Source of the DNA: Escherichia phage Turkey5
Sequence record: PQ471516.1
DNA length: 64,000 nucleotides
Direction: 5' to 3' (one strand)
Shown here piece after piece: positions 293 to 19,534 of this stretch (position 1 is the stretch's first letter; each line of letters begins with the position of its first letter). A program made the position numbers and the translations under genes. The notes beneath the pieces were generated by a model. The model was not told the DNA's origin, searched no databases, and saw only the letters and a list, made by a program, of their open reading frames with translations.

Positions 293-607
293 GCGTCTAT
301 GTAGTAATTATACGCTTTTTCAGGATCAAGTCAATACCTAAAAACAAAATAATTGAAAATAATTTAACGCGTTTAAACGGCCCGTAAAGCCCTGGAATGA
401 TTGGAATGGTGCAAATGTATAGCTTAGGTGTATTAATGCGTTAGAATGCGTCTGAGGCCGTTTTACGGGGTATAGGGATGATTTGGTGGATTGATTCAGT
501 ACTGAATGATAGTACTACTATATAGAAAGATAGTTCCCCTGGATGGTTGCAGTACTGAATGATAGTTCCCCTATATAGAGAGAAAACTATTTTAAAAGTA
601 CATGTAG

Positions 608-680
608 AAAGTACTTGCAAACTAAGTTTAACGGCGTATAATGTTTTACATCGAGAGCGGGAACACTTCCCGCTACATAT
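608..680 (+). promoter_or_regulatory. Early-type promoter cassette: TTGCAA (-35) N16 TATAAT (-10) followed by stem-loop GCGGGAA-N4-TTCCCGC (PeSL-like)
   Basis: Sigma70-like hexamers with near-consensus spacing; hairpin between -10 and RBS; same cassette recurs more than 30 times in 0.6-19.5 kb. Confidence 0.7.
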
Positions 681-697
681 TACGAGAGATTAAAACG

Positions 698-1060
698 ATG
701 GCGACTCAAATCACTAAAATTATTGCTAACCTGGTTAACTTCCGCGACGAGATGAAAGATCTTCCGGCTGAAACGGTAAAAATTCACATCGCAGCTTATC
801 GGGAACTTATTGCAATGTTGCCGCTTAAGCGTGAACAATACGCCGCTACCGTGATGCTTGATGCGATGATCCATAAGATGATCGCCAGTGATTTGACGAT
901 GGTTTATCAGTACATGGGCGAAAAATTCTCGGTGTATAGTAAACCAGTACCAGGAATGGAAAGTACAGAAGTATTACACGGTTTAAATTTAAAACAAGAT
1001 GCATGGGATAATATGCCTCGTTTCCTGGTATGGGCTGACAGTGGCAAAATTTACGAATAA
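698..1060 (+). CDS. hypothetical protein (121 aa)
   Basis: ATG at 698 after promoter/stem-loop cassette; the track ORF's upstream ATG lies inside the -10 box (TATAATG) and is rejected. Confidence 0.6.
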   Translation: MATQITKIIANLVNFRDEMKDLPAETVKIHIAAYRELIAMLPLKREQYAATVMLDAMIHKMIASDLTMVYQYMGEKFSVYSKPVPGMESTEVLHGLNLKQDAWDNMPRFLVWADSGKIYE

Positions 1061-1069
1061 GTTTAATAA

Positions 1070-1135
1070 AGTACTTGCATACTAAGTTAAAACAAGTATA
1101 ATACTTTCTATCAGGTGGGGAATAGTTCCCCACTA
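1070..1135 (+). promoter_or_regulatory. Promoter + stem-loop cassette (TTGCAT N16 TATAAT; GGTGGGGAA-TAGT-TCCCCAC)
   Basis: Same cassette architecture as at 608-680. Confidence 0.65.
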
Positions 1136-1154
1136 TAATTAAGAGATTAATTTT

Positions 1155-1388
1155 ATGAGTACTATTTTAACTGTTTCTCAATCCGTTGCACTGACTGACC
1201 TATTAAACGCTTTAAGCCGTTGCACTGAGGTTGGCTTGTTTGATGTGGTTGACGTTGCACCGGACGTTATTAATCATTTTTGTGATGCGATGGAAGAATG
1301 TAAGGAAGATGATAGCCGTATGATGGCGGTCGCCTTTGAGGAAGTACAGCCAGGTGAGATCAAAGGTTTACCAGTACTGAAAAAATAG
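1155..1388 (+). CDS. hypothetical protein (77 aa)
   Basis: ORF directly downstream of promoter cassette with purine-rich RBS (AAGAGATTAATTTT-ATG). Confidence 0.65.
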   Translation: MSTILTVSQSVALTDLLNALSRCTEVGLFDVVDVAPDVINHFCDAMEECKEDDSRMMAVAFEEVQPGEIKGLPVLKK

Positions 1389-1470
1389 TACTTGCAAACT
1401 AAGTTTAAAAGCGTATAATACTTTACATCAGGTGGGGAATAGTTCCCCACTATATAAGAGGATTAAAAAA

Positions 1471-1710
1471 ATGGCTAAATCAAAAATGTTCTTAGGTCAC
1501 AAAAACAAAACTCATTGGAATGTAAGCCTTTGGATTAATAACGATGAGTCATTGTACCGGTTGGCCCAGGACTTTATTAACGATAGCACTAATCGCAATG
1601 ATGCGGCCCGTCATATGATGTTATTTTTAGAACAGACTGGACAAGATAAAACACCGGACGGATTCAAATATAGCACTACTGCGATCCGTGCTGCGATGGT
1701 TGGAATGTAA
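1471..1710 (+). CDS. hypothetical protein (79 aa), paralogue of 3871..4110
   Basis: ATG after stem-loop with RBS AAGAGGA; shares 'GHKNKTHWNVSLWINN.ESLYRLAQ' and 'TPDGFKYSTTAIRAAMVGM' with the ORF at 3871. Confidence 0.7.
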   Translation: MAKSKMFLGHKNKTHWNVSLWINNDESLYRLAQDFINDSTNRNDAARHMMLFLEQTGQDKTPDGFKYSTTAIRAAMVGM

Positions 1711-1795
1711 TAGAATTTATTTAAAGTACTATCATTTTTTGCGATAGTACTTTATAATAGTGTTTTATTCATACACCAACGATAAGGGTAACAGC

Positions 1796-2062
1796 ATGAA
1801 TATTAAGTATTTTGCGACGCGTGAACAAGCTCGGATCGCCGCACGCCAGGACGGGGCAACGTTTAAAGATATGGGAGCGGGATCGGCAAGTGGTAAACGT
1901 TGGGCCATTGTAAAGCGTAGTACCGCCAGATCATTACAGTACTGGCTATCTGCTTTAAAGCGTCCTGATAGTGTATCGCGTCGAGTGGTAGAAATAAAGC
2001 ACGACCGCAAGGGCAATCGCGTTACCGTGTACCGTACTAAAAAGATAGCAGTACTTGAATAA
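1796..2062 (+). CDS. hypothetical protein (88 aa), paralogue of 14703..15098
   Basis: ATG 1796 with RBS AAGGG; shares 'FATREQARI', 'TFKDMG', 'GKRWA', 'HDRKGNRVTVY' with the ORF at 14703; track start 1760 is a GTG in the promoter region. Confidence 0.7.
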   Translation: MNIKYFATREQARIAARQDGATFKDMGAGSASGKRWAIVKRSTARSLQYWLSALKRPDSVSRRVVEIKHDRKGNRVTVYRTKKIAVLE

Positions 2063-2063
2063 A

Positions 2064-2130
2064 AAGTACTTGCAAACTAAGTTTAAAAGCGTATAATGTT
2101 TTACATCGAGAGCGGGAATAGTTCCCGCCT
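2064..2130 (+). promoter_or_regulatory. Promoter + stem-loop cassette (TTGCAA N16 TATAAT; GCGGGAA-TAGT-TCCCGC)
   Basis: Near-identical to the cassette at 608-680. Confidence 0.7.
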
Positions 2131-17598: not shown

Positions 17599-17599
17599 A

Positions 17600-17667
17600 A
17601 AGTACTTGCATTGTAGTTAGATTAACGTATAATGTTTTATATCGAGAGGGGGAAATGGTTTCCCCTC
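17600..17667 (+). promoter_or_regulatory. Promoter + stem-loop cassette (TTGCAT N16 TATAAT; GAGGGGGAA-ATGG-TTTCCCCTC)
   Basis: Cassette family member. Confidence 0.7.
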
Positions 17668-17685
17668 AAGTCCAGGAGATACACC

Positions 17686-17949
17686 ATGAACACTATCGAA
17701 ATCACTATCAATGCACACGTATACGACAACGTAGTACTGCAAACTACTATGACCGCTAATGATACCAGTACTTTGCGGAATACTGTTATTAGTGCCGTAT
17801 GTGCTGCAATCGGTGATGTATCCCTGGAAAATGCAGAACATATCAACAACGGTTTCACTATGTGCAAGCGTGATAACGCAAAACATATCATCGTGGAAGG
17901 TTACGGCGGTGTAGAATTTAATGTTTATATGAAAAAAGTACTTGCATAA
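17686..17949 (+). CDS. hypothetical protein (87 aa)
   Basis: ATG 17686 with RBS CAGGAGA; 3' end overlaps the next promoter. Confidence 0.6.
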   Translation: MNTIEITINAHVYDNVVLQTTMTANDTSTLRNTVISAVCAAIGDVSLENAEHINNGFTMCKRDNAKHIIVEGYGGVEFNVYMKKVLA

Positions 17950-18016
17950 TAACTAAAACAAAGTATAATGTTTTGCATAGGGGGAGATATCCTCCCCCAC
18001 TAAAAGGAGTAATAAA

Positions 18017-18241
18017 ATGGCTAACTTTGATGAACTGATGCGGGAAGTAGCTAACCTGGCAGAAGAGAAGAAATCATTCGATTCTATCTATAACACCGCT
18101 CACCGTGATTCAGTACTGGCATGTAACCAGGATCAAAAAGATGAACTAATCGCCACCTATCATGAAGCATGGAAGTACTACCGACAATGGGAGAAAGAAG
18201 AAAGTGAGTCTACCATTGACGGCCTCAATAATCTAATCTAA
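18017..18241 (+). CDS. hypothetical protein (74 aa)
   Basis: ORF after cassette 17935-18000; RBS AAGGAG. Confidence 0.6.
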   Translation: MANFDELMREVANLAEEKKSFDSIYNTAHRDSVLACNQDQKDELIATYHEAWKYYRQWEKEESESTIDGLNNLI

Positions 18242-18317
18242 AAGTTTTATTTCAGTACTATTGACATAGCTTGATAGTACTGATGTAATAACTTTACTAA
18301 CTACAAGGGGAAACATA

Positions 18318-18575
18318 ATGGAACAGTTCACACAATATCGGGTAAATCATCAAGCTATGGCCTACGTAGAAGACCATAAAACGTTACCAGTACTGCAACC
18401 AGTTAAAGGCCATATCTATCGTGCAATGTCGTGGTGTACGGCTCAGGATGGCTATAAAACCGTAGCCGTTGGTATGTATTGCGGTAATGGTGAATGGTTT
18501 GATCCAAATAATCCGGTAGCCATTGACAGTACTGAACAAATGAAATGGGCCGACTATATCGAGGATATCTCATAA
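18318..18575 (+). CDS. hypothetical protein (85 aa)
   Basis: ORF after type-2-like promoter 18250-18292; RBS AAGGGGAAA. Confidence 0.6.
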   Translation: MEQFTQYRVNHQAMAYVEDHKTLPVLQPVKGHIYRAMSWCTAQDGYKTVAVGMYCGNGEWFDPNNPVAIDSTEQMKWADYIEDIS

Positions 18576-18664
18576 AACTATTTGACAGTACTAACCAGTA
18601 ATGTATAATGTTTTACATAGAGCGGGGGAATAGTTCTCCCGCCAATAGTTTGGAGTAAAACATT

Positions 18665-18865
18665 ATGTCTATCGCTATCGCCCTGGTTGAAGTACTGAAA
18701 GAAGCTAAAGCCAACCTTATCGATGTACAGATTAAGGAATTGCAAAACGGCTTAATCGGCTGTACTTGTACCGCTGGTGGAGCGGCAGACTATCGAGAAC
18801 ACGAATCACTCGAATCACTGGTTCGGTATCTTACCATGATCGTTGATGATTGGAGAATCATCTAA
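18665..18865 (+). CDS. hypothetical protein (66 aa)
   Basis: ORF after cassette 18580-18650. Confidence 0.6.
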   Translation: MSIAIALVEVLKEAKANLIDVQIKELQNGLIGCTCTAGGAADYREHESLESLVRYLTMIVDDWRII

Positions 18866-19112
18866 CAAAAAAGAATAAAAAAAGGGATTGACTCAGGTCA
18901 GTCCCTTTGCTATTATATACGCATAGACAAAAACTAGCCCACAGGGTGCATAAGTGTATCCAAAATATATAGTTAATAACGGTGAGTAACTATCTGCTGG
19001 TGGAGTGAAAACTATTAATAAAAAAAAGTATTGACAAAGTATATCAGTACTGCAATAATGTATCTCGTAGGGCGGCAATGGTGCGACGGCCCACAAAGTT
19101 AGGAGATTCAAA

Positions 19113-19445
19113 ATGACTACTTCAATCGCTATCGTTAAAGCTTTCATCCGTACTAATGTTTCCTCTGTATTCATCGACGGCCTCGACCGTAACGTAGAAT
19201 ACTCAATCATTATCGCACAAACGGCAAACGGTTCTCGGTACATCCTTAATGATAGTGAAGCAAATCACTACTACTTCACTAAAGCCACTGGCTTTAAACG
19301 CATCGATGCTGATGTAGTATACGCTAAGATGAATAAGCTGGTAGACAAGATTAACGCGAAAGGTACTATCGATTTACAGTACTGGACCGAAACCGATCCA
19401 GAATATGGATCTCACCGCTACCTGAATCCGGGTATTAAAATGTAA
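19113..19445 (+). CDS. hypothetical protein (110 aa)
   Basis: ORF after promoter (~19030-19060) and RBS TAGGAGA. Confidence 0.65.
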   Translation: MTTSIAIVKAFIRTNVSSVFIDGLDRNVEYSIIIAQTANGSRYILNDSEANHYYFTKATGFKRIDADVVYAKMNKLVDKINAKGTIDLQYWTETDPEYGSHRYLNPGIKM

Positions 19446-19534
19446 AAAGTACTTGCATAGTACTTAGATTCATGTATAATGTTTTACATAGAGAGGGGGA
19501 AATGGTTCTCCCTCCTAAATTAAGGAGTTTTATC

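Follow-up and report, generated by a model that had tools for sequence, protein, structure and literature searches.

The first 20 kb of a 64,000-nucleotide stretch of DNA from Escherichia phage Turkey5 (PQ471516.1; the whole stretch is called the window below) contain many small genes which are preceded by a recurring unit of promoter, stem-loop and ribosome-binding site (RBS). In the initial annotation of this DNA these units were matched to the promoter early stem-loop (PeSL) cassettes of T4-type phages. The locus raises the question of how many such cassettes exist, at which level their stem-loop acts and whether they are indeed PeSLs. The analysis revealed a large array of full cassettes, the hairpin of which is an RNA structure under selection.

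The closest megablast matches of the first 8 kb and of the first 20 kb were Asteriusvirus genomes only (121Q, PBECO4, G17, CRJP21, vB_Ec-M-J and others; 348–386 kb), with an identity of 88–97% in pieces. The taxonomy of the nearest records is Caudoviricetes, Asteriusvirus, that is, 121Q/PBECO4/G17-like jumbo coliphages. By these records Turkey5 is an Asteriusvirus and not a T4-type phage.

Inventory and anatomy of the cassettes

Exact matches to TTGCAA-N15-18-TATAAT were found 14 times versus 0.22 expected, all on the + strand and within 615–13477, and the motif TATAATGTTTTAYAT occurred 13 times versus 0 expected. With 24 cassettes of equal geometry as seed, a covariance model recovered 27 full cassettes in the 64-kb window, all on the + strand within 601–19519 and with E-values between 1e-17 and 4e-6. 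The same scan of the window gave 0 full cassettes in 20–64 kb. Scanning for promoter plus hairpin and, independently, for hairpins returned the same cassette set in each case. The array is real, large and statistically unambiguous. The number of full cassettes stays below the more than 30 copies claimed before, and the statement that almost every open reading frame (ORF) is preceded by one was overstated: among the approximately 53 genes of the region 27 have a full cassette, about 15 have another, hairpin-less promoter and about 12 have no promoter. Hairpin-less promoter matches in the region number roughly 15–20.

The first cassette spans 601..700, with the -35 element at 615, the -10 element at 637–642, the hairpin at 656–674 and the ATG at 698. 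For the others the extent is followed by the positions of the -35 element, the hairpin and the ATG. Cassettes 2 (1061..1157; 1075, 1114–1134, 1155), 3 (1378..1473; 1392, 1431–1451, 1471), 4 (2056..2152; 2070, 2112–2128, 2150), 5 (3417..3514; 3431, 3471–3491, 3512), 6 (3779..3873; 3793, 3833–3853, 3871), 7 (4664..4758; 4678, 4718–4737, 4756) and 8 (5132..5223; 5146, 5182–5201, 5221) precede cassette 9 (5449..5545; 5463, about 5506–5521, 5543), which has an imperfect hairpin, and cassette 10 (6741..6840; 6755, 6795–6816, 6838), the hairpin of which contains two G.U pairs. They are followed by cassettes 11 (7060..7154; 7074, 7114–7134, 7152), 12 (8866..8961; 8880, 8920–8939, 8959), 13 (9095..9188; 9109, 9150–9167, 9186) and 14 (9686..9781; 9700, 9741–9759, 9779). 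Cassette 15 (10121..10219; 10135, 10175–10194, 10217) has the -35 element TTGACA, cassette 16 (12234..12325; 12248, 12287–12305, 12323) has the weak -10 element TATAGT and cassette 17 (12506..12599; 12520, 12560–12579, 12597) has the -35 element TGGACA. After cassette 18 (12803..12897; 12817, 12857–12875, 12895), TTGACA is again found in cassettes 19 (13552..13648; 13566, 13606–13624, 13646), 20 (13911..14012; 13925, 13967–13986, 14010) and 21 (14182..14282; 14196, 14238–14256, 14280), as well as in cassettes 23 (17041..17140; 17055, 17095–17113, 17138) and 26 (18568..18667; 18582, 18622–18642, 18665). The remaining ones are cassettes 22 (16734..16832; 16748, 16789–16808, 16830), 24 (17592..17688; 17606, 17646–17667, 17686), 25 (17928..18019; 17942, 17980–17998 with the arms GGGGGAG/CTCCCCC, 18017) and 27 (19439..19537; 19453, 19493–19514, 19535).

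Each cassette comprises about 95 bp and consists of an A-rich UP-like stretch, a sigma-70-type promoter, a start region, a hairpin, a Shine-Dalgarno sequence (SD) and an ATG. The 5' part is an A-run which finishes in AGTAC, the final bases merging into the -35 element. This element reads TTGCAA/T/C in 19 of 27 cassettes and TTGACA or TGGACA in the other 8. The spacer to the -10 element measures 16 nt (17 nt once) and frequently ends in AGTACTG. The resulting upstream consensus is TTAAAAAAGTAC-TTGCAA-N16-TATAAT; the cassette consensus given in the initial annotation was correct. In terms of sequence match only, ten promoters score 12/12 and many more 10–11/12. An interpretation of AGTACTG as an extended -10 element was rejected; its TG directly adjoins the hexamer, the spacer base which an extended -10 requires being absent, and the promoter scan flags TG only in the TGGCATAAT class described below.

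Directly after TATAAT follows a conserved start region, (G/A)NTTTACAT(C/G/A), also written (G)TTTTACATC (TTTACAT). The hairpin begins 8–15 nt past the -10 hexamer in 27 of 27 cassettes and has a stem of 7–9 bp and a loop of 3–5 nt, with a G-rich 5' arm and a C/U-rich 3' arm. With the A of CAT, 8 nt past the -10 element, as the most likely transcription start, 4–6 unpaired nucleotides would lie ahead of the hairpin, which would occupy about +5 to +26 of its own transcript in a leader of approximately 45 nt. The SD follows 3–15 nt after the hairpin, and the ATG lies 40–51 nt past the inferred start site.

Two features of the cassettes produce false gene starts. As noticed before, the ATG within TATAATG creates N-terminal extensions: ORF 641..1060 is translated as MFYIE... 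and shares the frame of the real start at 698. A second source is the ATG of the hairpin loop (ATGG) at 4726, 16797 and 19502, which is in frame with a real start 30–33 nt downstream. This loop ATG is preceded by the SD-like 5' arm GGAGAA and misleads a naive gene caller.

The hexamer AGTACT, which the cassettes carry both at the edge of the -35 element and where the spacer ends, is plentiful within genes too. There are 275 copies in the whole window versus about 20 expected, a 13-fold excess that was reached in 0 of 100 shuffles. Copies are located, for example, at 27, 99 and 188, the density is highest in 1–20 kb and the usual context is (T/A)CAGTACTG(A). The 6-bp palindromes AGCGCT, AGGCCT, CAGCTG, CCATGG and CGATCG have zero copies each in the window.

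The leader hairpin is an RNA structure under selection

In order to align the stems the covariance model was used, since the combination of MAFFT and RNAalifold on the 27 cassettes misaligned them, because loop length and offset vary, and gave a meaningless consensus of -1 kcal/mol. Applied to the window and six Asteriusvirus loci, the model found 165 cassettes at E ≤ 1e-5, all co-oriented with the genes. Pairing statistics were calculated from the 111 distinct rows among the best 150 of these 165. Standard pairs were formed by 97.1% of the cells, and compensatory changes were present in 8 of 8 pairs (106 cells in total). None of 500 column shuffles reached the observed pairing values, and when the 3' partner was slid by 1–3 columns, pairing amounted to 58–85% with 0–17 compensatory cells. 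One stem position spans A-U, G-U and G-C (40, 18 and 49 rows, respectively).

The cells without Watson-Crick pairs provide an independent argument on the strand on which the structure is read. G.U was found in 56 cells versus 9 for A.C, all nine A.C cells being located in one outer pair; in the five loop-proximal pairs the ratio was 47 to 0. This asymmetry means that the structure is read on the sense strand, which at this position means RNA. Thus, selection acts on the hairpin as a sense-strand RNA structure. The inverted repeat might otherwise have been a palindrome at the DNA level, either an operator for a dimeric repressor at +5 to +26, since a position just past the start is the classical one, or a cruciform or recombination site, as the breakpoints described below often lie at the hairpin. 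A double-stranded palindrome or protein operator would not show the G.U bias, and the mismatches are nearly all G.T on the sense strand, equal to A.C on the other. The stem sequences are moreover free to vary via compensatory changes, and all copies are co-oriented with transcription. The DNA-level explanation is already disfavoured and we consider it most improbable.

No match to a known RNA family was detected: Rfam searches gave 0 matches at the gathering score in the 64 kb and three chance-level ones (E 0.4–0.65) in 1–20.6 kb, and the tRNA scan gave no match.

The predicted free energies of the hairpins in the 27 leaders range from -8 to -16 kcal/mol, and the z-scores of the ten leaders tested from -0.8 to -3.7. 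The hairpin represents the minimum free energy (MFE) structure of 26 of 27 leaders, with SD and AUG unpaired. The same layout of promoter, hairpin and RBS was found in Klebsiella phage RaK2 (Alcyoneusvirus) and in Phapecoctavirus nepoznato. Their stems are of quite different sequence (e.g., GGGAAUGAA/UUCAUUCCC and GGGCGGCA/UGCCGCUC), with position and G-first polarity kept. These data bear on a possible translational switch, in which the 3' arm would mask the SD or the 5' arm would act as a ribosome standby site. Such a switch is suggested by the similarity of the 5' arm (GGGGAG) to an SD and of the 3' arm (UUCUCCCC) to an anti-SD, by the many loops with an ATG after GGAGAA and by the cassette with the -35 element at 9109, the MFE fold of which pairs the 3' arm with the downstream SD. 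It is nevertheless quite unlikely: the SD is free in nearly all leaders, the spacing from the SD-like arm to the loop ATG is too short for initiation and the hairpins of RaK2 and nepoznato are not SD-like.

A run of T after the hairpin was found in 0 of 27 cassettes, and none of them appears on the list of terminator-like sites, the criterion of which requires a T-run. Genuine terminators with hairpin and T-run exist in the same region at 5859, 6574 and 15123. In the G17 annotation (ARNold) the hairpins of full cassettes are not called terminators, only hairpins with a T-rich tail, including the homologue of the promoter-less hairpin at 4130. The earlier placement of the stem-loop in the 5' untranslated region, and not as a terminator, holds for 27 of 27 cassettes with respect to both its position past the inferred start and the missing T-run. 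A canonical intrinsic terminator was rejected for the latter reason, an RNase III site because the stem has just 7–9 bp and an N4-type hairpin promoter because a complete sigma-70 promoter precedes the hairpin.

An effect on read-through was also considered, in which the hairpin, as a PeSL-type attenuator or terminator, would stop or dampen transcription from upstream units so that its own promoter dominates each gene. A stem-loop of the RB49/phi1 PeSLs, similar in G-run/C-run composition, reduced downstream lacZ expression about as much as the rrnB T1 terminator (PMC2839356). The RB49 hairpin lies upstream of the start, however, and avoids a problem that would arise in Turkey5, where a terminator past its own start would also abort its own transcripts at about 26 nt. 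The units stand head to tail without terminators between them, so that read-through needs handling, and premature termination in 5' untranslated regions is common in other phages (PMC10914365). Hairpins of the cassette family with a T-run do occur, at 4130–4149 and 15123–15143, where there is no promoter; no U-run follows any of the 27 hairpins of the full cassettes. Taken together, attenuation appears unlikely as the function of the latter.

Probable gene exchange at the cassettes, and neighbouring elements

No database record spans 80% of the first-20-kb query in megablast. This and the identity in pieces indicate that the first approximately 20 kb, as judged by these alignments, are strongly mosaic among Asteriusvirus genomes. 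The initial annotation had proposed to examine whether recombination breakpoints coincide with cassette edges. Breakpoints were defined as unique internal ends of BLAST alignments between 1–20.6 kb of the window and six relatives (n = 57). Twenty-nine of them lie inside the 27 cassettes, which make up 13% of the sequence (binomial p = 6e-12). Per kb, the cassettes contain 11.1 breakpoints, other intergenic DNA contains 3.8 and coding DNA 0.95. This corresponds to a 12-fold excess of cassettes over coding DNA (Fisher p = 2e-14) and a 3-fold excess over other intergenic DNA (p = 6e-4). Left alignment ends cluster 32–41 nt upstream of the -10 end, at the AAAAAGTAC edge, and right ends fall between hairpin and ATG. 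Cassette 17041–17140 is the exact overlap of two high-scoring segment pairs (HSPs) in four relatives which have an extra gene there.

The types of promoter spacer are combined with the types of hairpin in many ways, six four-gamete quartets among them, which argues for exchange within the cassette at the conserved -10/start region. A comparison with Phapecoctavirus nepoznato (L007), a member of a different subfamily, revealed that its positions 6000–13200 and window 1155–18865 have at least 8 small early genes in common, in scrambled order. The amino-acid identities are 47–96%, with one gene at about 87% nucleotide identity. One of the common genes is flanked in nepoznato by cassettes of the Asteriusvirus type. 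Nearly all genes of the region are annotated as hypothetical in the relatives, apart from those for a DksA-like zinc finger, an acetyltransferase and a protein kinase.

The annotation of vB_Ec-M-J gives the homologous stretch as a direct terminal repeat of 21,525 bp, and window 601–19537 is part of the stretch corresponding to it. By colinearity with vB_Ec-M-J the terminal repeat would finish near window 20.36 kb, where the cassettes cease. A perfect 80-bp ×2 tandem repeat is located at 20194–20353, about at this mapped boundary. Beyond approximately 20.36 kb the gene style is different: small paralogous ORFs overlap tightly and lack promoters. On the + strand, from 20522 to at least 23210, at least 10 such ORFs of about 72–86 amino acids are arrayed in tandem, with overlapping stops and starts, an invariant G-T-x-x-Q motif and no cassettes.

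Besides the full cassettes, the region harbors the hairpin-less promoter class that had been recognized before, TTGACA-N17-TGGCATAAT. An example spans 7301..7377 (+, promoter at 7315), and the promoter scan gave further copies at 2411, 7607, 10449 and 11242 (+) and at 5112 and 2583 (-). Convergent or isolated hairpin-less promoters face each other across about 100 bp at 2411–2583 and also at 40–120, 215–334, 5030–5112 and 11242–11349. The stretch of approximately 100 bp between facing promoters contains the motif CCCAYNGGGTGC on both strands and no ORF.

A half cassette at 4130..4171 (+) consists of a cassette-family hairpin, an RBS and the ATG at 4169; it has no promoter, TTTATT follows and HSP breakpoints lie at 4110/4132. 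The hairpins at 4130–4149 and 15123–15143 belong to the cassette-hairpin sequence family (GGCGGGGAATGGTTCCCGCC), and from their sequence they look like attenuators ahead of a promoter-less gene. A variant cassette at 19017..19115 (+; 27 bits) combines TTGACA-N17-AATAAT with a different hairpin (GGGCGGCAATGGTGC...) like the nepoznato type and has its ATG at 19113.

Two to three cassette-type promoters (2616, 13436, 5916) lead into a different, longer structured leader. This conserved leader of about 75 nt (CAGGACGGGGAAC...CUCCCCUGAU) lies at 2664–2746 and 13484–13564, with a diverged copy at 5964–6050. It has a predicted energy of -19 kcal/mol and z-scores of -2.4 to -2.7. As a second promoter follows immediately, it may be a small non-coding RNA. 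A module present in four copies (9571–9680, 13303–13422, 16608–16720 and 18870–18975) has a common 12-bp bidirectional terminator hairpin, AAAGGGATTGAC-tccg-GTCAGTCCCTTT, which contains a + strand -35 box (TTGACT-N17-TATTAT). A - strand promoter at 13422–13395 would yield an RNA of about 90 nt with the motif GCACCCUGUGGGC that ends at the module hairpin and a U-run. The product of the module may be a small RNA, or a sense/antisense pair.

Proposed function and comparison with known systems

We propose, at somewhat better than even odds, that the cassettes form an array of standardised early-gene units with the leader hairpin as stabiliser or insulator and with the units as sites of exchange. 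The near-consensus promoters and the location in the terminal repeat suggest that they are immediate-early sigma-70 transcription units. Host RNA polymerase would start at each unit directly on entry of the DNA, each small gene having its own strong promoter. The hairpin would then act post-transcriptionally in a generic, largely sequence-independent manner and, by analogy, would raise and standardise the output of any gene placed downstream. It may limit 5'-end-dependent decay by RppH and RNase E, like the 5' hairpins of T7 gene 10 and ompA; both enzymes need single-stranded 5' ends and are hindered by 5' structure (PMC3997798). In read-through transcripts it may insulate the RBS from upstream sequence, and it is possibly a barrier to 3'-exonucleases for the upstream message. 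At the DNA level nearly every second gene boundary carries about 95 bp of conserved sequence, which would make the units preferred sites of homologous exchange. The pattern of single genes swapped, inserted and deleted among relatives, even between phage genera, is seen in the alignments; exchange at the units is its probable mechanism.

Several points weigh against this proposal. The transcription starts were inferred from the position of the -10 element alone. The covariation alignment was fitted to the structure of the model, and many of its rows are close relatives. The enrichment of breakpoints is partly built in, as similar cassettes let BLAST alignments run in and stop at their edges; since any replacement of a gene between similar cassettes would produce part of the pattern, the enrichment represents an association and not a mechanism. 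The 4–6 unpaired nucleotides predicted at the 5' end are perhaps too many for protection of the ompA type. According to Emory and co-workers in 1992 and to later work on RppH, two to three unpaired nucleotides reportedly suffice for this enzyme. A block to scanning RNase E was rejected as the role of the hairpin, because simple stem-loops orthogonal to its path are readily bypassed (PMC9943677). The single-stranded 5' end and this bypass are the reasons why our confidence in the function is moderate.

Furthermore, the constant G-first/C-last polarity and the stem top GAA...UUC, which is near-invariant within Asteriusvirus, exceed the needs of a pure stability element. They would fit recognition by a trans-acting factor, either a ribonuclease or an RNA-binding protein of phage or host origin, that at a certain time switches the whole early regulon off or on by a logic like that of T4 RegA/RegB. 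One common element with a GGAG motif in its 5' arm would be carried by 27 early messages (54 with both terminal repeats), and the hairpin-less promoters of the same region would permit two differently regulated early classes. The loops, however, vary widely (ATGG, ATGA, TAG, TGG, ACGG, AAAC, CAC, GCGG, ATATC), the stems of RaK2 and nepoznato are wholly different with position and shape kept, and no candidate factor was found. A factor site is as doubtful as attenuation. A broader possibility, to which we give a similarly small chance, is a plug-and-play pool of cassettes across unrelated large enterobacterial myoviruses (Asteriusvirus, Alcyoneusvirus, Phapecoctavirus and relatives), in which the hairpin would be a handle for a dedicated phage or host factor and not a generic stabiliser. 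If the hairpin is such a handle, it would set the timing or lifetime of the early regulon and mark it off from the hairpin-less class. If the pool exists, recombination at cassettes would be the main route of early anti-host genes between phage families.

The cassettes are of practical use in several respects. The covariance model provides a precise, searchable definition of early transcription units for a large group of jumbo phages, in which nearly all early genes are unannotated, and gene starts wrongly extended into TATAATG or a hairpin-loop ATG can be corrected. The 27 natural variants with compensatory stems and the hairpin-less class as a control offer a system for studying the effects of a hairpin near the 5' end of sigma-70 transcripts. 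The genes in common with Phapecoctavirus point to an exchange of early genes, likely for host takeover or anti-defence, between phage families.

A leader-hairpin cassette was not described in the literature searched on Asteriusvirus, RaK2, PA5oct, CBB and phAPEC8, with subscription journals incompletely covered; promoters were reported. For the related jumbo phage CBB these are 18 promoters of the early region and the terminal repeat, which are RpoD-like and have UP-like elements, and no leader hairpin or cassette was described (PMC5259590). The CBB promoters resemble those of Turkey5 in being strong, host-type and placed before many short hypothetical genes in or near a terminal repeat of about 20 kb, which is presumably first to enter. 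The pre-early genes of phage T5 also lie in the terminal repeat, but the T5 promoters are not known to be part of a repeated unit of promoter, hairpin and RBS. Morons (Hendrix et al., as discussed in PMC2839356) are single genes with their own promoter that move between phage genomes. They differ in having their own terminator, in being usually solitary and in lacking a flanking conserved repeat able to mediate exchange.

The closest functional analogue is probably the 5' stabiliser hairpin of T7 gene 10 or ompA. The T7 gene 10 (phi10) leader is used as an mRNA stabiliser and expression enhancer, and the phi10 and ompA hairpins are reported to shield messages from RNase E and, once transplanted, to increase expression (PMC2254391, PMC6146998). 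The phi10 leader opens with an 8-bp GGGAGACC/GGUUUCCC hairpin with an energy similar to that of the cassette hairpins. In T7 gene 10 and ompA (hp1) as in the cassettes, a G-first hairpin (GGGAGA...) of about 8 bp and about -12 to -16 kcal/mol is followed by an unstructured A/U-rich stretch, the SD and the AUG, and structure is kept rather than sequence. However, the T7 gene 10 hairpin begins at nucleotide +1, whereas 4–6 unpaired nucleotides are predicted ahead of the cassette hairpins, and T7 gene 10 is transcribed by the phage's own polymerase and not from a sigma-70 promoter. The cassette hairpin is also repeated 27 times within a recombining unit, and its stabilising effect is putative.

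The initial match to PeSLs (RB49/phi1, PST/T4, nt-1/KVP40) held in part. Both are repeated elements of about 70–100 bp that combine AT-rich DNA, a sigma-70 early promoter, a G-run/C-run stem-loop and an SD/ATG; they are clustered in a hyperplastic region of small orphan genes, and indels or replacements between close relatives lie at or beside them. The composite cassette, the hyperplastic region, the breakpoints and the reassorting halves agree with a PeSL, whereas the position of the hairpin in the leader does not, and the missing T-run speaks against the terminator feature. The RB49 stem-loop is located in the -35/-10 spacer or overlaps the -10 element, upstream of the transcription start (PMC2839356), and that of PST and nt-1 closely precedes the promoter (PMC4122927, Fig. 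3 legend). In the RB49 intergenic regions extracted here, a G-run/C-run stem either fills the spacer (TTGACA-GGGGATC...GATCCCC-TATAAT) or spans the -10 element. The PeSL hairpin of RB49 is therefore absent from the transcript of its own unit. In Turkey5 the hairpin lies downstream of the inferred start and would be the first structure of its own transcript, and it has no U-run, so that a terminator function is not supported by the sequence. The cassettes consequently lack the position, and from their sequence probably also the function, that define a PeSL, and the move of the hairpin into the transcript implies a different function. They also occur outside the Straboviridae, in an array within a direct terminal repeat, and extend cassette-mediated modular shuffling beyond T4-like phages. 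From their sequence the Turkey5 cassettes are best described as a PeSL-like system of a non-T4 jumbo phage lineage, in which the stem-loop has moved into the leader.

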